A stretch of 64,000 nucleotides of DNA from NCBI GenBank assembly GCA_047610985.1, contig JBLFWU010000010.1, forward strand, positions 6,502 through 70,501. The letters run 5' to 3'. Origin of the DNA: Nitrospinales bacterium. GTDB lineage: Bacteria > Nitrospinota > Nitrospinia > Nitrospinales > VA-1. The position numbers were made by a program, and so were the translations under genes. Shown piece after piece: positions 4,569-53,040 of the stretch (positions within the stretch are counted from its first letter, which is position 1; each line of letters opens with the position of its first letter). The notes under the pieces are model-generated. The model had not been told where the DNA came from. It saw only the letters and a list, made by a program, of their open reading frames with translations, and searched no databases.

Positions 4569-5561
4569 ATGACTGATCGACAGGTGCCAAACGCTTGGCT
4601 AAATGTACCATCGACCTCTGGATTGCTTGCTGTCGGCAGTTCTCACTCGATTTATTGGAGCTCTTTCGGCCATCCCGATGCGATGCCAGTTATTGCTCTG
4701 CACGGCGGTCCTGGTTCCGGCTCAGATTCCCGACACTTAACGTTCTTCGACCCACAAATTCATCGGGTGATCATGTTCGATCAGCGCGGTACCGGGCAAT
4801 CAACGCCGTCGGCCACTACGATTAAAAACACGCCGCAAGACTTACTAGATGATATCGAAAAACTGCGCTGCTATTTAAGCGTCGAGCGTTGGTTGGTCTT
4901 TGGTGTGTCCTGGGGAGCCAGTCTTGCATTGCTCTATAGTCAAAACCACCCACAGGTCAGTACTGGCTTGGTGCTGGCAGGGTTGTCAAATCGCCACGAG
5001 CATCAGACCGCGTGGATACTTGAGGAGCGTGCGCGGCTATTGCCCGAACGTCACGAGGAGTTTCTGAAGGCGCTTGCTCCCGGCGAACGAGCTGATCCGA
5101 TTGTAGCTTATTATCGAAAGAGTTTGTCTTCGGATCGAAAGAACCAACTCGAGGCAACGTACGCCGTTTGGGTGCTGGAAGCTGACTTGGAAGGCCCGGA
5201 ACTGAAAACGCTGCCGACGATGAGCCTCGATGAGATTGACGCGAGCATGGTCAACCGCGCAATGATTTACCTTCACTACTGGGCGAACAGGACTTTTCTC
5301 CCACACGGTCATTTATTGATTAACCCGAGTGCGCTGATTGAACTGCCTGTGGTATTGGTTCACGGTTCGTCGGACTGGATTTGCCCGCTAAGCGGCGCGC
5401 AGCGAGTGGCTGATTCGATCGAGGGTGCTCAATTGATCGTTGTGCCGGGCGCAGGGCACTCGCCCTATAGTGCAGACATGGTGGTAGCACTGCGCGAATC
5501 TATTGTGGCCTCAAGACAACGAAACTCTCGATTAACGACTACCAATTCGTCGATGCGTTAA
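4569..5561 (+). CDS. pip: Proline iminopeptidase-like alpha/beta hydrolase (peptidase S33)
   Basis: LHGGPGSG, FDQRGTGQS, GVSWG nucleophile elbow, C-terminal D..C and AGH; RBS-like AGGAG upstream. Confidence 0.85.
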   Translation: MTDRQVPNAWLNVPSTSGLLAVGSSHSIYWSSFGHPDAMPVIALHGGPGSGSDSRHLTFFDPQIHRVIMFDQRGTGQSTPSATTIKNTPQDLLDDIEKLRCYLSVERWLVFGVSWGASLALLYSQNHPQVSTGLVLAGLSNRHEHQTAWILEERARLLPERHEEFLKALAPGERADPIVAYYRKSLSSDRKNQLEATYAVWVLEADLEGPELKTLPTMSLDEIDASMVNRAMIYLHYWANRTFLPHGHLLINPSALIELPVVLVHGSSDWICPLSGAQRVADSIEGAQLIVVPGAGHSPYSADMVVALRESIVASRQRNSRLTTTNSSMR

Positions 5562-46162: not shown

Positions 46163-47002
46163 ATGAAGATTGAAGACGTTGTTGATGATTGGGTGGCCAG
46201 TCCGCCACATCTTTATTTTAAACTCAAAGAGGTAATTGAAGACCCGGATAGCTCTTTCAAGGATATCGGGGAAGTGATTCTTCATGATCCTGCACTCTCC
46301 GCCCGTATTCTGAGAATATCCAACAGTCCACTTTTTAATCCCGAATCCGAAGTAGAAACTATTGAGCATGCTCTAACTTTTATAGGAATGAATCAGTTGG
46401 AGGAATTAGTGCTGGGAACAGCTGTGATGGAAAGTTTTAAAGGTATTCCTGTAGATGTTATTGACATTAATTCTTTTTGGAAGCATAGCATTGCCTGCGC
46501 TTTGACTGCCCGGTTGATCGCAGAGCATATTCATGAGTCAGATTTGGAAAGGTTTTATCTTTTGGGGATTTTGCATGACATAGGCAGTCTGGTCATTTAT
46601 AAAAAAGCTCCAAAGGCTGCCAAAGAGGCATTGCAATTAAGTGAAGGAAGTTCAAAATATTTATTTCAAGTTGAGACTCAGGTGCATGGTTTTAACCATG
46701 CCGAAGCAGGGGCTGCTTTATTTCATGCTTGGAAACTGCCGGAAAGGCTAATAGAGGTGGTTGCTTGCCACCATGATCCAAAACAAGCAAAAAACTATTC
46801 AAGAGACGCATCTATCATTCATCTAGCAGATGTTATTTCCCATGAAATAGATTTGCAAGGAACAGGAGAAGGGTTTTCCCCACCAATTGATGAAGAAATT
46901 CTCGAATCTGTTGGCCTCACCTCACGAGATCTGTTATCTGTAAAAAGCCAACTAAAAGATCAGTTCGAGCAAACGGCAGAGGTGTTTTTATCTTCAAGTT
47001 AG
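46163..47002 (+). CDS. HDOD domain protein
   Basis: DPALSARILRISNSP, FWKHS, GILHDIG, NHAEAG, W.LP, CHH. Confidence 0.92.
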   Translation: MKIEDVVDDWVASPPHLYFKLKEVIEDPDSSFKDIGEVILHDPALSARILRISNSPLFNPESEVETIEHALTFIGMNQLEELVLGTAVMESFKGIPVDVIDINSFWKHSIACALTARLIAEHIHESDLERFYLLGILHDIGSLVIYKKAPKAAKEALQLSEGSSKYLFQVETQVHGFNHAEAGAALFHAWKLPERLIEVVACHHDPKQAKNYSRDASIIHLADVISHEIDLQGTGEGFSPPIDEEILESVGLTSRDLLSVKSQLKDQFEQTAEVFLSSS

Positions 47003-47028: not shown

Positions 47029-48384
47029 GTGAAAGAGTTGCTAAACTTATTTTGCAGATTGTTATTTACTGCATTTATATTTTTGTTAGTGCCTGCTATG
47101 GCAGTTGCAGGGCTAGATGAATCTTTCTTACACGCGGTTTACGAAGGAGATCGAAAAGAGGCAGAGTCGCTATTAAACTTGGGAGCAAACCTTGAATCAC
47201 GTACTCAAAAGGGGAGTACGGCATTGATAGTTGCGTCAGCACGAAACGATTCTGAAATGGTTCGTTTTTTATTGAGTCGAGGATCGAGAGTCAACTCTCG
47301 AAACCGATATGATGATACGGCTCTATTGCTTTGCTCCACGCGTGGCAATACCCGTTGTGTTAAAAGTCTAATTGAAGGAGAAGTAGACCTGAATGTGCGG
47401 AACATGCATGGCTGGAGTCCTCTTGCCCGAGCAGCACGTTATGGGCATTTGGAAACGATGCAGTTATTGCTCAAGCATGGCGCGAATGTAAACATCCAGC
47501 TAAACGATGGTGCTACTCCGTTACTTATTGCAACTGGTGAAGAGCACTCTGGCGCTGTCCATCTTTTGCTGAATAATGGGGCGGATATTCATTCTAAAAA
47601 CTATGATGGAACACAACCCATCTTGCTTGCTGTTCTAACGGGTCGGAAAGATATTGTTGAGCTTCTCATTTCAAAGGGTGCTGATCCTAATTCCCGAAAT
47701 GCTTTTGGAGACCCACTTTTATTTTTAGCCATTGAACGAGACTTCGTAGACTGCATTGAGCTGCTGCTGAAATCGGGTGTTGATGTGAATGCTCTTAGCC
47801 CCAAAGGCTGGACCCCCCTTATGCGTTCGGCAAAATTTGGACGAACTCGAGCCGCAAAAGCTTTAATCGCAAAAGGTGGAGATGTGAATTCCACCAGTAA
47901 AGGCGGAGCCACTTCATTGATGATCGCTTCCGAACGTGGCGAGTTTGAATTTGTTAAATTGCTGGTAGAACATCAGGCAGCTGTGAATACAAAAAGCAAG
48001 AATGGCACGACCCCGGTTATCAGTGCGGCTGCCGGAGGGCATGAAAATATTGTTGCCTATTTGCTCGATAAAGGTGCTGAGTTTCACACGGTAATAAAAA
48101 ACGGGTCAACCGCTTTGATGGTCGCTGCAGAGAGAGGCCATTTAGAAACTGTAAAGGTGTTGATGGTGCGGGGGGCAAATGTTCAGGCTCGCAGTAAACG
48201 GGGTTGGACTCCATTGATGGTCGCCGCCGCCGGAGGACATGCTGAAATTACTCGCCTTTTTCTGGATGAAGGGGCCAAGTGGGATGTTAAATCGAAAGCT
48301 GGTTGGACGGCTCTCAAAGTAGCCCTCAAATTGGGTAAAAAAGAAGTGGCTCGACAGCTAATGGAAGCCGGAGCAAATAAATAA
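47029..48384 (+). CDS. Exported ankyrin-repeat protein (about 12 repeats)
   Basis: Signal peptide then repeated G.TPL..A...G....V..LL..GA.VN units. Confidence 0.92.
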   Translation: MKELLNLFCRLLFTAFIFLLVPAMAVAGLDESFLHAVYEGDRKEAESLLNLGANLESRTQKGSTALIVASARNDSEMVRFLLSRGSRVNSRNRYDDTALLLCSTRGNTRCVKSLIEGEVDLNVRNMHGWSPLARAARYGHLETMQLLLKHGANVNIQLNDGATPLLIATGEEHSGAVHLLLNNGADIHSKNYDGTQPILLAVLTGRKDIVELLISKGADPNSRNAFGDPLLFLAIERDFVDCIELLLKSGVDVNALSPKGWTPLMRSAKFGRTRAAKALIAKGGDVNSTSKGGATSLMIASERGEFEFVKLLVEHQAAVNTKSKNGTTPVISAAAGGHENIVAYLLDKGAEFHTVIKNGSTALMVAAERGHLETVKVLMVRGANVQARSKRGWTPLMVAAAGGHAEITRLFLDEGAKWDVKSKAGWTALKVALKLGKKEVARQLMEAGANK

Positions 48385-48389
48385 TAGAG

Positions 48390-50585
48390 TTAGCTTTTTT
48401 CTATTAAACTCTCGCGGACCTTTTTAAGAAGGCCGACATTTTGTGTGTGTCCAGACTTATAGGCTTTTATTTTTCCACGGATGGGTTTCCCTAATAAATA
48501 AAAATCCCCCAATATGTCGAGAATTTTATGACGTGCAAACTCATCTTTGAAACGTAACTTGGTGTTTAAAACCTTTTTGTCTCCAAGCAAAATAAAATTG
48601 TCGAGTTTACCTCCTGAAGCATAACCCATTTTAGTTAACTGTGCGACCTCTTCCATGAACCCGAAAGTGCGAGCTGGGGCGATTTCCTTTTTAAAGCTTT
48701 CATCGCCGTCAAATTCATAGGTGAAATCCTGCACTCCTATGGGTTCAGGGTATTCCATGTGGTAGCTGACTGAAAATTTCTCACTGGGTTCGATAGAAAT
48801 ATAAGGTTCACCTTTTTCCTTGTCACCAAAAGAATACCTTTTGTCGACCACAATCTCTTCATAAAAGTCGTCCTGGTCTTCAAACTCTCCATCTTCCAGG
48901 AGTTCGCAAAAATCTTTAGCCGAACCATCCATCACCGGTGCCTCATCCCCAATTTTTATAAGAAGGTTAGTGACTCGGTACATATGTAAAGTGGCCATGA
49001 TATGTTCAATGGTTCCAACTGAGTTGGCACCTTTTTTCAGGCAGGTGGAATAATCTGTAGACTGGACATTTTCCAATTGAGCGGGGATGGTTTTTCCAGA
49101 TGCGATATCACCAAATATAATTCCGCTTCCAGTGGGCATGGGTTGTAGAATCAGTCCGGTTTTTATGCCTGAGTGCAAGCTGCTTCCGCAAAGAACGACA
49201 CTGCGCTTTAAAGTCCGCTGTGGATACCTTTTTTGAGAGGGTGCGGTAACATTTTCCTGCATCTCGATTGAATGGTATTTTAGTTTTTCCTGGAATTGTT
49301 TTTTGCTCGTTTTTAAAACTTTGCAGGTTTCATCAATGTCCCAGTTGTTTCGTTTTAAATGGTGGAGAATGAAATGTTTCTCCCAGATTAATTCGGCTTC
49401 CTTTAACGACCCGGCTTCGTTTAAGGTTGTTATCTCAATTTGGTTTTGCGGTTTCCAAATTTCAGTTGGTAAGTCCTGAACACTAATTGTTTGTTGGTTA
49501 GCGCAGGTCCGTATCAGTTTTTCCAAAACACCATGAAGCTCTTTAATATTTCCTGGCCAGCTATAACCACAAAGTGCTGTTAGAACCTCTTCATCTATTT
49601 CCGGGATGAAAGTGTGACGCCTTGTTTCCTCAAGGTAGTCCTTGGCAATTAAGGAAATGCTGGCTGTATGATTTCTTAAAGGGGGAATGAGAAGGTTGGT
49701 ATTTTTGAAAGCATCCAGCAGGCCTTGGTGGAACTGTCCTTTGGCTACTAATTCATCAAGGTTTTTCGAAGATGATGCAAAAAGCCGGACGGGTAAAAAC
49801 TCAAAATTTGTATCAGGAAGGTTGGTGTTTTGTAATGCTTCCGCGAGTTTTTCCTGAAGCCCCTTACTTAGAGATTCTATATTGCTTAGATAAACGACCT
49901 TTTCTCCAGAGGTAGGATGGGTTTTGTTATCTCTATCTTTTCTTTTGAAAAGTTGCGATTGGATAGCCTGCTTTTGTCTGAATAAACAATTTAATTTTAT
50001 AAAAGGTCGATCACCTTTTCTACTTTGAGCATGAATAGTCTGAGCGACAGATGCTTTACCCGTCCCGATTTCACCCAATAGCAAAACGGGTTCCATGGAT
50101 TTTGAGAATGCTTTGATGCCTTTTTTGATTTCAACCATCGATTCAAAACAAACTGGAAGTTCTTTCGAAGCCTGAGAGGGTTTGATTTCCACAAGTGGAA
50201 CTGAGTTTTCTGAATGGAGGGCATTTTCAACGGACTCGGTGATTCGGTCGAGCGAGAACGGTTTTTCTATGAAGTCTTGAGCGCCCAGTTTTGTCGCTTT
50301 GACTGCGGTATCTATAGTCCCATGGCCCGACATGATTAAAACTTTTACTCCGGGATTGTATGTTTTTAAAGTTTTTAAAACTTCAATCCCATCCATGCCG
50401 GGAAGCCATATGTCGAGCAATACCAGATCTGGAGGATCTTTTTGAATTATTTCCAAAGCCTCCACACCGTCGTCGGTCATAGATACTTCATAGCCTTCGT
50501 CCGACAGTATCCCGGTGAGAGAACTGACAATATTTTTTTCGTCATCAACGATAAGAATGCGTTCTTTAGGCAATCTTTTCTCCAA
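48390..50585 (-). CDS. lpxC: Fusion of NtrX-like receiver, degenerate sigma54-activator AAA+ domain and Fis-type HTH with LpxC deacetylase
   Basis: N-term ILIVDDE, LLDIW, MSGHG, FIEKPF; GEIGTGK, IPPLR, WPGNIKEL; HTH region. From residue ~456: QRTL, LHSG, TIEHIMATL, PVMDGS, APARTFG, ARHKILDILGD, GH. One continuous ORF. Confidence 0.93.
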   Translation of the reverse strand: MEKRLPKERILIVDDEKNIVSSLTGILSDEGYEVSMTDDGVEALEIIQKDPPDLVLLDIWLPGMDGIEVLKTLKTYNPGVKVLIMSGHGTIDTAVKATKLGAQDFIEKPFSLDRITESVENALHSENSVPLVEIKPSQASKELPVCFESMVEIKKGIKAFSKSMEPVLLLGEIGTGKASVAQTIHAQSRKGDRPFIKLNCLFRQKQAIQSQLFKRKDRDNKTHPTSGEKVVYLSNIESLSKGLQEKLAEALQNTNLPDTNFEFLPVRLFASSSKNLDELVAKGQFHQGLLDAFKNTNLLIPPLRNHTASISLIAKDYLEETRRHTFIPEIDEEVLTALCGYSWPGNIKELHGVLEKLIRTCANQQTISVQDLPTEIWKPQNQIEITTLNEAGSLKEAELIWEKHFILHHLKRNNWDIDETCKVLKTSKKQFQEKLKYHSIEMQENVTAPSQKRYPQRTLKRSVVLCGSSLHSGIKTGLILQPMPTGSGIIFGDIASGKTIPAQLENVQSTDYSTCLKKGANSVGTIEHIMATLHMYRVTNLLIKIGDEAPVMDGSAKDFCELLEDGEFEDQDDFYEEIVVDKRYSFGDKEKGEPYISIEPSEKFSVSYHMEYPEPIGVQDFTYEFDGDESFKKEIAPARTFGFMEEVAQLTKMGYASGGKLDNFILLGDKKVLNTKLRFKDEFARHKILDILGDFYLLGKPIRGKIKAYKSGHTQNVGLLKKVRESLIEKS

Positions 50586-50591
50586 ATGGTT

Positions 50592-51242
50592 TCAGGTGAC
50601 AGGGCTTACAGCGGCAACTCGCATGTATTCCAGATAAAATATTTTATCACCTGCATTGATAAAGTTTTTTTCATATTTTGATTTGGGCAAATCAATTCGC
50701 TCTTCAAGAAAACCCTGTTTGTCTTCCAGGTTTTGCAGCAAAGCCTCAGCATTAAAATATTCCAGCATTTCCATTGCATAGCTTTCGCTATCAGTTGCTA
50801 GGCAGGCTCTTCCTTCCAAATTCAATTTTTGGGCCAGTTGATTGACAAAATCTGGCTTGATCAGTCTTCTTTTAGTATGCCTTTTTTTTGGCCATGGGTC
50901 AGGAAAATTTATATAAACAGTATTTAACTCTCTATCTTGAAATAGTACTGAGAGTTTACTCCTGATGTCCCCATAAACGACCCGTATGTTTTCCAACTGA
51001 AGTTTTTTAATGCGGGTCATCAACTTTCTTATCCCTTTATGATAAAAGTCGATCCCTATAAAATTACTGGTGGGCTCTTTGGCTGCCATTTCGATTAAAA
51101 AGTTTCCCATCCCAAAACCGATTTCGAGCTTAAGGGGATTGGAATTTCCAAACTGGCTTTGCCAGTCCGGCTTTTTATCAATATCTAGATAATAAGGGTC
51201 TTCTTCCGCAATTTGGGCTAAAGATATTAAAGGTTTTCCCAT
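50592..51242 (-). CDS. trmB: tRNA (guanine-N7)-methyltransferase
   Basis: LEIGFGMG, NFPDPWPKKRH.KRR, ATD, SKYE. Confidence 0.95.
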   Translation of the reverse strand: MGKPLISLAQIAEEDPYYLDIDKKPDWQSQFGNSNPLKLEIGFGMGNFLIEMAAKEPTSNFIGIDFYHKGIRKLMTRIKKLQLENIRVVYGDIRSKLSVLFQDRELNTVYINFPDPWPKKRHTKRRLIKPDFVNQLAQKLNLEGRACLATDSESYAMEMLEYFNAEALLQNLEDKQGFLEERIDLPKSKYEKNFINAGDKIFYLEYMRVAAVSPVT

Positions 51243-51739
51243 TAGCTTGAAGCAGAGTTCTGTTTTTCTAAGTTTTCGTGAATGGTTACCACCTTTAAAA
51301 CTTCGAATTCCAATTTATTGTCAGGCAGTGAAATGATAAGGTCATCACCCTTCTGTTTGCCAACTAGAGCGCGACCCACGGGCGATGCCGCAGATAATTT
51401 TCTTTCATCAGGATTAACCTCTTCAGGAAAAACCAGATGATACTGAACTTCTTCACCTGTGTTGATGTCGCGAAGAAACAGTGTGCTTCCTAACCCAGAG
51501 CGGTCATTGGGGATTTTTTTCAAATCAATAGAAGTGATGTCACTAATTCTTTTTTGTAAAAGAGATATTCTGGATTCCAGAAACATCTGTCTTTCCTTTG
51601 CAGCTTTAAATTCTGCATTCTCGCTTAAGTCGCCATGCTCGCGTGCAGTTTTTATAGCTTTGGGTATGTCTACCTGCAATTCGTGATGCGACTCTTTTAA
51701 CTCCTGATCCAGCTTGTCTACTATGGGAAGTCGCGGCAT
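51242..51739 (-). CDS. greA: Transcription elongation factor GreA
   Basis: AREHGDLSENAEFKAAKE, SPVGRAL. Start at MPRL with GGAG upstream (track 51772). Confidence 0.93.
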   Translation of the reverse strand: MPRLPIVDKLDQELKESHHELQVDIPKAIKTAREHGDLSENAEFKAAKERQMFLESRISLLQKRISDITSIDLKKIPNDRSGLGSTLFLRDINTGEEVQYHLVFPEEVNPDERKLSAASPVGRALVGKQKGDDLIISLPDNKLEFEVLKVVTIHENLEKQNSASS

Positions 51740-52176
51740 ATCGAATTCATCTCCAAAATTAAAGCGATCCAAATACTTTTCTGATAGCTGTTTCCATCAA
51801 GAAAAAGCATTTGCACACGGTTATAAGCCACTACGATATGAAATAAAAGGGTTCTGGGGATTATTTGATGAATCCGGGAAGCCAAATTTCTAAATCATTT
51901 TAATGCGAACCTTAATATGAAAAAGGCAGTTCATTGTAGGGGGTGAATTGCTTTGCGGTCAACAAAAATTTATGCTTTGAAAATTAAGACCAAAATGAAC
52001 TGAGGTCATGTGTGATAGAGGTTTAAATGCTTGACCTGTAAGGAGATAAGCGGATAAAATGATTAATTAGTCTTTTTAGACATAATGTAAGGCTTGAGAG
52101 CAGTTATTTTGCTTTTCGAGTATCGATCTTTAGAGTCTAGGGTTACTCTGGTAGAGGTTGAGTATAATTCTAGCAG

Positions 52177-53040
52177 TTGGGTAAAGTGAAAGAGAAACTT
52201 TTAAACTTATTAGAAACAAAGGGAGATTTACCACCTTTATCAGATGTCCTTCTGAATCTGGAAAATCGGGTGAATGACCCCAGTAGTGATATCGAGGAGA
52301 TTTCTGGCCTCATTCAAACCGAACCGGTTTTGTCGGGGAGGTTGATAAAACTGTCTAATAGCGTGCTTTTTGGCGGCGGAAGAGATGATGTCCATGACTT
52401 AAGCCAAGCAATTATGCGGCTAGGGATGAAGATGGTGCTCGATCTGGCTTATACTCTGGAACTTCCGAAAGCTTTTAAAAAGTCTAAATCCTTTGATCAT
52501 ATTCAGTTTTGGAAACATTCGTTGGGAGTAGCCTATTTGTCCAGATCCTTGGCTATCCATATAGGTTCTCAAAAAGAAGATCTGGATGCGAGTTATCTTG
52601 CCGGCCTCATGCACGATGTGGGAATTCTTGTTTTTGACTATTTGATACCTGAAGAATATTCAGATTTTATTAAGACTGTGGCGGAGAGTGAAAGAACCTT
52701 GGGGGAATTAGAATTTGAAAAATTTGGCATTTCCCATTCCGAGTTAGGTGCAGAATTTATTGGCAAATGGTGGCCGGTCTCAGAAATTGTAGTGAAGTCC
52801 GTGAGAAGGCATCATAATCTACCTCCAAAAAAGAAAATCAAACCGGGAGTTCCTCGTTTGGTGAACTGGGCCAACCAAATTGCCAGTAATAATGAGATGC
52901 AGAATGGGATAGCTATGCATTTCCATCCTCTGGATGGAAACATTTTCCCGAGGTTAAAATTAAATCAGGAAGAATTGGAAGTAATGGTGGATAAAACTAA
53001 AGAAGGGGTAGAAGCTGCCGACATGATCTTAAGAAGTTAG
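52177..53040 (+). CDS. HDOD domain protein
   Basis: LPPLS, EPVLSGRLIKLSNS, FWKHS, AGLMHDVG, SHSELG, RHH. Confidence 0.92.
   Translation: MGKVKEKLLNLLETKGDLPPLSDVLLNLENRVNDPSSDIEEISGLIQTEPVLSGRLIKLSNSVLFGGGRDDVHDLSQAIMRLGMKMVLDLAYTLELPKAFKKSKSFDHIQFWKHSLGVAYLSRSLAIHIGSQKEDLDASYLAGLMHDVGILVFDYLIPEEYSDFIKTVAESERTLGELEFEKFGISHSELGAEFIGKWWPVSEIVVKSVRRHHNLPPKKKIKPGVPRLVNWANQIASNNEMQNGIAMHFHPLDGNIFPRLKLNQEELEVMVDKTKEGVEAADMILRS

Follow-up and report, generated by a model that had tools for sequence, protein, structure and literature searches.

Why would a bacterium carry its only LpxC as the last domain of a response regulator? The question is raised by a 64,000-nucleotide (nt) stretch of DNA from a Nitrospinales bacterium (GenBank assembly GCA_047610985.1, contig JBLFWU010000010.1, positions 6,502 to 70,501), here called the window, in which a single open reading frame (ORF) joins an NtrX-type regulator to a complete LpxC. 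LpxC commits the cell to lipid A. Outer-membrane lipid synthesis is controlled at this enzyme, which is also an antibiotic target. Regulation of LpxC is generally described as proteolytic in enterobacteria (FtsH with LapB/YejM) and otherwise as transcriptional. We find that the fusion is genuine, that it is the genome's only LpxC match, and that its receiver and its enzyme are the parts that its relatives keep; a likely reading is that a sensor kinase acts on the enzyme through the receiver. The parts of the protein are as follows.

48390..50585, minus strand: fusion ORF, 731 amino acids from the first TTG, stop codon at 48390-48392; receiver (REC), degenerate AAA+, lid, helix-turn-helix (HTH) and LpxC
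50571..50583, minus strand: possible true start, TTG at 50571-50573 and GGAG at 50580-50583 with a 6-nt spacer, giving 727 amino acids
50229..50558, minus strand: REC, residues 10-119 (PF00072, E value 1.9e-33); Asp58 codon at 50412-50414; predicted local distance difference test score (pLDDT) of the block 81-97
49677..50141, minus strand: AAA+ core, residues 149-303, a predicted pseudo-ATPase (Pfam, alignment to 3dzd and 5m7n)
49443..49673, minus strand: AAA+ lid, residues 305-381 (Pfam AAA_lid_14, E value 3.9e-13)
49275..49406, minus strand: Fis-type HTH region, residues 394-437 (alignment to the HTH of 5m7n; AlphaFold2 helices at 394-412, 417-424 and 428-437)
49221..49274, minus strand: linker, residues 438-455, containing Met443 (ATG at 49257-49259); block pLDDT down to 61 at 441-450
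48417..49220, minus strand: LpxC domain, residues 456-723 (PF03331, E value 1.8e-80; TIGR00325 over its cut-off)

The initial annotation, made from the letters alone, had described one unbroken 731-residue ORF with an intact receiver and a complete LpxC, and this description holds. The frame is stop-free from its TTG start; D14, D15, D58 (in LLDIW), S86 and K108-P109 of the receiver are all in place; and the EH, HKxLD and GH motifs of LpxC are represented by E527-H528, H686-K687, D690, D694 and H713, together with T640-F641. The profile hidden Markov model scans that it had proposed bear out three of its four domains: Response_reg scores 115.4 bits (cut-off 30.2) and covers 1-110 of its 111 model positions, Sigma54_activat matches residues 149-291 with an E value of 5.4e-18, and LpxC (PF03331) matches at 270.8 bits against a cut-off of 27 (model positions 1-266 of 268). 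HTH_8 (PF02954) is found at residues 402-436 with 11.7 bits, under its cut-off of 22, although AlphaFold2 models the region from 394 to 437 as three helices with a block pLDDT of 85-95. In NCBIfam, the lpxC equivalog TIGR00325 scores 232.4 bits against a cut-off of 187.25, and the best regulator model is NtrX (NF051870) with 238 bits, short of its cut-off of 600. The best matches among solved structures are the Aquifex aeolicus NtrC-family protein 3dzd (9.6e-50), Brucella NtrX 5m7n (1.6e-49) and Pseudomonas aeruginosa LpxC 7phn (1.7e-48). A full-length AlphaFold2 model built on a 113-row alignment has a mean pLDDT of 88.2, with all domains confident and floppy linkers at 126-140, at 381-386 and near 441-450. 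The first TTG overlaps the GGAG of the second TTG (50573), which lies four codons into the ORF and would give 727 amino acids; homologues of 725-727 amino acids exist, and the second TTG is probably the true start.

The genome (3.05 Mb in 131 contigs, 92% complete) holds a single LpxC match, the fusion ORF itself, which answers the question whether this is the only lpxC. Both lpxA and lpxB are located on another contig, so the lipid A pathway exists in this organism, and this together with the sole-copy status suggests that the LpxC domain deacetylates UDP-3-O-acyl-GlcNAc. The same picture extends through the phylum. Among 120 genomes labelled Nitrospinota, 57 of them high-quality, 108 have an LpxC match (56 of the 57), exactly one each. 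The match lies in a frame of 670-809 amino acids, stop to stop, in 92 genomes and in a shorter fused frame in eight, of which G001, G003, G108, G110 and G040 were inspected and G002, G004 and G109 were judged by frame length. The remaining eight matches are partial: two lie at verified contig ends (G100, G088), three begin at contig ends by their coordinates (G102, G065, G082), and the others are G111, G064 and G069. None of the 108 matches contains a stop, and none shows a stop or a change of frame between the regulator and LpxC, the kind of break that the initial annotation had named as fatal to its reading. In a protein search, all 120 homologues among the matches listed (60-100% identity) have the same Pfam domain set, and those that are named carry the labels Nitrospina, Nitrospinaceae, Nitrospinota or Nitromaritima.

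Which parts of the fusion are under constraint? We aligned 113 fusions, 58 long and 55 short forms. The residues of the receiver that take part in phosphorylation are nearly universal (D14 in 111, D15 in 112, D58 in 112, S or T at 86 in all 113, and K108 in 112), and the LpxC columns E527, H528, H686, K687, D690, D694 and H713 show no variation in any of the 113. The zinc and catalytic residues of the fusion align to those of P. aeruginosa LpxC; in E. coli numbering we take the zinc ligands and the catalytic Glu and His to be E78, H79, H238, D242 and H265. Across the 58 long forms, mean pairwise identity is 0.69 in REC and 0.69 in LpxC, compared with 0.49 in the HTH, 0.39 in the AAA+ core, 0.39 in the lid and 0.23 in the linker. 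To judge by these alignments, selection keeps precisely the two ends of the fusion. Eleven LpxC positions (464, 476, 477, 487, 534, 536, 544, 560, 612, 666 and 675) are specific to the fused clade, meaning that they are at least 85% conserved in the fused proteins and shared with at most 15% of 28 stand-alone LpxCs. At position 544, for example, the fused clade has Lys where the stand-alone enzymes have Glu or Asp. These eleven positions are candidate contact or regulatory sites.

In contrast to the two ends, the middle of the protein has decayed. The initial annotation had called it a sigma54-activator-like domain; such a domain is present, but it is degenerate, scoring 68 bits on PF00158 compared with 233-247 for 12 canonical activators of the same genome. 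Walker A is kept (GxxGxGK; GEIGTGKA in the window). Walker B reads YLSNIE, with S-N for D-E, the arginine finger reads FHQGL, and sensor II reads GNIKEL, with Lys for Arg. Among the 58 long forms, the Walker B D-E survives in one, the arginine finger in one and the sensor II Arg in four. An 8-residue gap relative to A. aeolicus 3dzd lies where the GAFTGA loop should be, and the loop is absent from all 17 long forms among 21 representatives. Because GAFTGA is missing, Walker B reads S-N, and the arginine finger and sensor II Arg are lost, the AAA+ domain by its motifs cannot work as a sigma54 activator, and it is a predicted dead ATPase.

The middle can also disappear altogether. The HTH segment is missing from seven of the 58 long and 53 of the 55 short fusions, so that DNA binding appears, on the alignments, to be dispensable for the family. 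This corrects the suggestion that the protein may also bind DNA: the HTH region is modelled as folded here, but the family does not need it. One family of the phylum (f5) has lost the AAA+ domain, leaving REC-HTH-LpxC proteins of 505-514 amino acids, and another (f7) has lost both AAA+ and HTH, leaving REC-LpxC proteins of 447 amino acids. G040, which belongs to the window's own family and has its gene behind greA-trmB, encodes a 453-residue REC-linker-LpxC protein without AAA+ or HTH (L122, G040:C134, 1372-2733, plus strand). By comparison with its relatives, this is an independent deletion of the middle, which makes at least three such deletions within the phylum, and REC plus LpxC emerges from these comparisons as the conserved functional unit.

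The fusion is not confined to Nitrospinota. Among the best 150 matches in 1.84 billion cluster representatives, both ends are matched by about 15 proteins of 650-736 amino acids and about 20 of 402-505 amino acids; we checked 17 sequences from this search individually. A profile of 12 short forms finds PF03331 plus PF00072 in all 120 of the matches listed, among them proteins named Candidatus Binatia, Deltaproteobacteria, Verrucomicrobiae (one row) and Nitrospinae. Among the best 80 loci on contigs representing one genome per species, 32 have REC and LpxC in one ORF, two are frame-split and 46 have a stand-alone LpxC. The fused loci are labelled Binataceae/Binatia, Syntrophobacter/Syntrophobacteraceae, Thermodesulfovibrionia, Nitrospinota, several “Deltaproteobacteria” and one “Pseudomonadota,” and further Thermoanaerobaculia, Holophagae, Acidobacteria, Aminicenantes, Desulfocapsaceae, Desulfomonile and Thermodesulfobacteriota, these names of divergent fusions being depositors' labels for metagenome bins. 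Minimal REC-LpxC proteins occur under the labels Binatia, Syntrophobacteraceae, Thermodesulfovibrionia and Acidobacteriota. In all five genomes checked outside the phylum, the fused gene is the sole LpxC. Some Acidobacteriota-labelled fusions have 55-215 extra residues N-terminal of the receiver (L049, 1256-3178, plus strand; L052, 4821-6287, plus strand), which could reflect a wrong start or a further domain.

We placed 110 LpxC domains (27 of the 58 long, 55 short and 28 of the 46 stand-alone) on a quick, unrooted LG+G4 tree, after 31 near-duplicate long forms and 18 stand-alone rows had been removed by hand; several long branches were flagged. The 28 stand-alone LpxCs fall on one side of a single branch (support by SH-aLRT, a likelihood ratio test, 100), so that the step between fused and unfused is one change, and the state changes between long and short 8-9 times. 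The tree is compatible with one origin of the fusion followed by repeated loss of the middle.

If the receiver is phosphorylated, which kinase does it? The initial annotation had noted no cognate kinase next to the gene. None adjoins it in the window, but an NtrY orthologue is encoded on contig C4 of the same genome, and its counterpart does adjoin the fusion in related families. In f5, f7 and f9, all seven representatives have the gene order mutS, epimerase, DUF4390, kinase (about 740 amino acids), fusion, purN and lolA, and the ntrY-linked kinases consist of NtrY_N, HAMP, PAS, HisKA and HATPase_c domains. In f1 to f4, the families of the window's own taxonomic order, the fusion follows greA-trmB in all 10 representatives examined. 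Contig C4 carries mutS-epimerase-DUF4390-ntrY, and no regulator gene was found after ntrY there. Aligned from end to end, this NtrY and the f9 kinase share 48% identity (736 bits; next match 131), and a single-copy orthologue is present in 106 of the 120 phylum genomes (55 of the 57 high-quality ones). Among the 32 fused loci from other phyla, 12 have DUF4390-ntrY immediately ahead of the fusion.

The regulator half itself points the same way. Unfused regulators that follow ntrY in other phyla match it at 225-249 bits, and no other ORF of the genome exceeds 165 bits; since the regulator half is closer to ntrY-linked regulators than to its paralogues, the fusion is taken to be the genome's only NtrX orthologue. 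Its low score on the NtrX model has a parallel in an unfused ntrY-linked regulator (L113), which reaches 512 bits on NF051870 and is also under the cut-off of 600. The gene linkage in relatives suggests that the regulator half is the partner of the NtrY kinase and would receive its phosphoryl group.

From this we consider it likely that NtrY-driven phosphorylation of REC controls LpxC in cis, and that a sensor kinase probably switches outer-membrane synthesis directly. The cell's only LpxC would be the output domain of an NtrX-type response regulator. NtrY, encoded with the DUF4390 gene, would phosphorylate Asp58 of the receiver, and the phosphorylation state would set the amount of lipid A precursor made by LpxC, acting in cis on the activity, oligomeric state or stability of the enzyme. 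The AAA+ module would be a folded but catalytically dead remnant of sigma54 type, at most a spacer or oligomerisation scaffold, and DNA binding by the HTH may persist in this species. How might the receiver act? By analogy with CheB, the unphosphorylated receiver might restrain LpxC and phosphorylation release it; we offer this simplest form as the likeliest in detail, but only tentatively. Under the same proposal, the receiver could instead dimerise on phosphorylation, as NtrC-family receivers do, or proteolysis could be regulated. The only lead on the signal is the title of a paper, in which Brucella NtrY/X is said to be a redox sensor.

Several observations weigh against this proposal. What is established is the architecture, the integrity of the motifs, the sole-copy status, the conservation pattern and the kinase linkage; both phosphotransfer and the effect of phosphorylation on LpxC are steps that we infer. 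The earlier idea of phosphorelay control over lipopolysaccharide (LPS) flux is supported in part, by the sole copy, the conserved receiver and the survival of REC plus LpxC. The closed f1 and f4 genomes place ntrY 0.09-1.35 Mb from the fusion, and with ntrY remote in f1 to f4, the partnership there is read from orthology alone. No ntrY was found within 5 kb of fused loci labelled Acidobacteriota. One long fusion, P0139 (695 amino acids, high-GC), has a degenerate receiver, with E, N, S and Q at key positions, and an intact LpxC, so the enzyme can exist without a phosphorylatable receiver; P0139 is a pseudo-receiver variant in which Ser is the sole phosphorylation residue left. In 92 of 108 phylum genomes, the AAA+ and HTH domains persist in well-folded form, and they may matter more than the word remnant implies, as a scaffold or through a residual DNA-binding or transcriptional role in this species. 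Finally, the full-length model has a predicted template modelling score (pTM) of 0.52, so that no fixed arrangement of the domains is predicted. The short f7 form reaches a pTM of 0.74 with a disordered linker at 124-171, which exceeds what the LpxC domain alone (275 of 447 residues) could contribute and is at most a hint of a set domain arrangement. A complex prediction of REC (1-130) with LpxC (448-731), run without controls, gave scores of 0.09 and 0.00, below the mark of 0.32, and weighs neither way.

Could phosphorylation instead control DNA binding by the HTH, with LpxC constitutively active and merely co-expressed on the same chain? The folded HTH region aligns to the Brucella NtrX HTH, the full-length model gives no sign of inter-domain contacts, and NtrX proteins are, in the accessible text of one study, transcription factors with envelope regulons (PMC7240162). 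However, the many fusions that lack the HTH keep the phosphorylation residues of REC, and G040 has shed both AAA+ and HTH within the same family and the same greA-trmB context. A receiver with LpxC as its sole output would otherwise control nothing. We regard this explanation as unlikely.

We also think it quite unlikely that the receiver works independently of phosphorylation, only dimerising or docking, for example by keeping LpxC close to NtrY in the membrane. P0139 and the Acidobacteriota-labelled loci, which lack an adjacent kinase gene, would fit such a role. However, each element of the phosphorylation site (acidic pocket, acceptor Asp, Ser/Thr and Lys) is retained by 111-113 of the 113 fusions under several phylum labels, which is expected only if the chemistry of phosphorylation is under selection, and the single-copy NtrY of 106 genomes likewise speaks against this role. 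A third explanation reverses the direction of the signal, making the LpxC domain a ligand sensor that reports levels of UDP-3-O-acyl-GlcNAc to the regulator. Enzyme-derived sensor domains are known in other regulators, but this is the only LpxC of a genome with lpxA and lpxB, its catalytic and zinc columns are invariant in all 113 fusions, and the short forms have no output domain for a sensor to report to; this reading is very improbable.

Weakest of all, and practically without a chance of being right, is the idea that two genes were joined through chimeric assembly or an overlooked frameshift: two of 34 fused-type loci of other phyla are indeed frame-split, one within AAA+ (L059, 3173-5670) and one in the linker (L069, 4992-6262), but the neighbouring ntrY of L069 is broken too, a sign of indel errors in that assembly, and the same open frame stands in 100 independent phylum genomes (92 long, 8 short; several closed in a single contig) and in all 120 homologues listed. 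The join at about 49220, across which the initial annotation had wanted reads, is also crossed with zero gaps by contigs of three RNA libraries (49117-49587, 49117-49933 and 49117-49292). These contigs are Logan assemblies of relatives 90-95% identical to the window and speak for continuity rather than for a transcript; DNA carry-over in the RNA libraries is possible. The fusion is no assembly artefact. Within the conserved start of LpxC, the contigs of all three libraries, which come from different studies, stop at 49061 and restart at 49117; this shared break is probably due to strain branching in the assemblies. The internal Met443, which the initial annotation had flagged, was rejected as a conserved start of free LpxC, although it may serve as one in this strain: no GGAG or AGGA lies upstream of it, and the Met does not occur in 20 other aligned representatives.

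How does the fusion compare with systems that are better known? Brucella abortus NtrX (5m7n, aligned over residues 10-436) likewise has REC, an AAA+ domain without GAFTGA and a C-terminal Fis-type HTH, and the NtrY/NtrX system shares with the fusion's kinase the layout NtrY_N-HAMP-PAS-HisKA-HATPase_c, here with DUF4390 ahead. However, the Walker B D-E and the arginine-finger motif are still present in Brucella NtrX, where the fusion reads S-N and F-H-Q-G; the fusion, moreover, falls short of the NF051870 equivalog cut-off and ends in a complete LpxC. Stand-alone LpxC (P. aeruginosa 7phn, A. aeolicus 1p42, E. coli 4mqy) matches the enzyme over its full length and shares all catalytic and zinc residues, whereas the fusion adds a 455-residue N-terminal regulator. 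The TIGR00325 match of the fusion ends at position 272 of 297, so that the C-terminal tail of LpxC is missing; in E. coli this tail is said, in a paper title, to be needed for degradation by FtsH.

Another natural LpxC fusion is LpxC/FabZ (PRK13188); on that model the LpxC part of the present protein reaches 204 bits, where the cut-off is 465. There the partner is a pathway enzyme at the C-terminus, whereas here it is a signalling domain at the N-terminus. CheB, a REC-methylesterase, is a response regulator with an enzymatic output. Like the minimal REC-LpxC proteins, for whose action it is our working model, it has an N-terminal receiver, a flexible linker and a hydrolytic enzyme, although the output domain is unrelated and most fusions of the phylum have a dead AAA+ and an HTH between receiver and enzyme. 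Desulfovibrio vulgaris DVU2934, compared by description only, is a case of two-component control aimed at lpxC, but it is transcriptional and works through separate proteins.

How could such a protein have arisen? In four loci labelled Deltaproteobacteria or Desulfobacteraceae (L113, L085, L091 and L096), a stand-alone lpxC sits immediately ahead of DUF4390, ntrY and an unfused ntrX of about 450 amino acids. Two of these four regulators keep GAFTGA and Walker B, and two have a decayed GAFTGA. In L113, a sigma54 promoter match (10 of 11) at 4931-4946 lies 61 nt upstream of lpxC and is the only such site in the locus; none was found within 400 nt upstream of lpxC in L085, L091 or L096. Published precedents, as given in the accessible text of each study, are transcriptional: lpxC is the single target of DVU2934 (PMC3333781; PMC4114195); in Syntrophobacter fumaroxidans lpxC lies directly upstream of the orthologous regulator operon (PMC3333781), the order also seen in the four loci above; and deletion of ntrYX in Rhodobacter sphaeroides raises lpxC mRNA 8.8-fold and also raises LPS, with no NtrX site reported at lpxC (PMC7240162). 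These cases suggest a path that began with transcriptional control of lpxC by a kinase and its regulator, went on to the fusion of that regulator with the enzyme and ended in the decay of the transcription machinery. It is plausible, if somewhat short of an even bet, that the fusion has a single origin from a sigma54-type NtrX that activated a neighbouring lpxC, that control moved from promoter to enzyme, and that Nitrospinota preserve an arrested stage of this transition, in which the AAA+ is dead and the HTH is fading.

We found no description of a receiver-LpxC or NtrX-LpxC fusion in the full-text literature, whose coverage leaves out most subscription journals. In the accessible text of a 2025 review of lipid A regulation, the terms “fusion,” “fused” and “response regulator” are all absent (PMC12444477). 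In public databases these proteins are annotated as just LpxC or NtrX. LpxC-FabZ fusions, and response regulators whose output is an enzyme, are already known. If the proposal is true, a receiver on the only LpxC is a third and direct mode of control, beside proteolysis and transcription. The wiring itself extends across a whole phylum of marine nitrite oxidisers as well as to records labelled Binatia, Syntrophobacteraceae, Thermodesulfovibrionia and Acidobacteriota. The fusion would also be a physical “Rosetta-stone” link for the connection between NtrYX and LPS, which is indirect in the genetics of R. sphaeroides. Two-domain proteins of 420-450 amino acids would be a simple system in which to reconstitute signal-dependent control of LpxC in vitro, and the family as a whole would record a stepwise transition from transcription factor to enzyme regulator.

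The surroundings of the gene in the window are as follows.

50592..51242, minus strand: trmB, tRNA m7G methyltransferase family (Pfam Methyltransf_4, E value 4.3e-50), directly upstream of the fusion
51242..51772, minus strand: greA (Pfam GreA_GreB and GreA_GreB_N), first gene of a likely greA-trmB-fusion unit
51933-51962, minus strand: promoter-like site, a 10 of 12 match; the number of such sites is not above shuffled expectation
47029-48384, plus strand: ankyrin-repeat protein of 451 amino acids (Ank_2, E value 7e-114) with a hydrophobic N-terminus; convergent, ending 6 bp from the fusion stop
46163-47002, plus strand: HDOD-domain protein (Pfam)
52177-53040, plus strand: HDOD-domain protein, by likeness to the syntenic HDOD gene of f2 to f4 only

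As first described, the fusion begins 6 bp after the trmB stop, with greA upstream of trmB. A search for LapB by PF18073 gave a candidate that was rejected: its sole match in the genome is RadA (577 bits on TIGR00416; G000:C8, L117, 1480-2841), and since the model also matches Gram-positive controls, it is unusable as a LapB marker. Two HDOD genes flank the greA-trmB-fusion unit, and relatives have purN-lolA-rseP where the window has the ankyrin-repeat gene.

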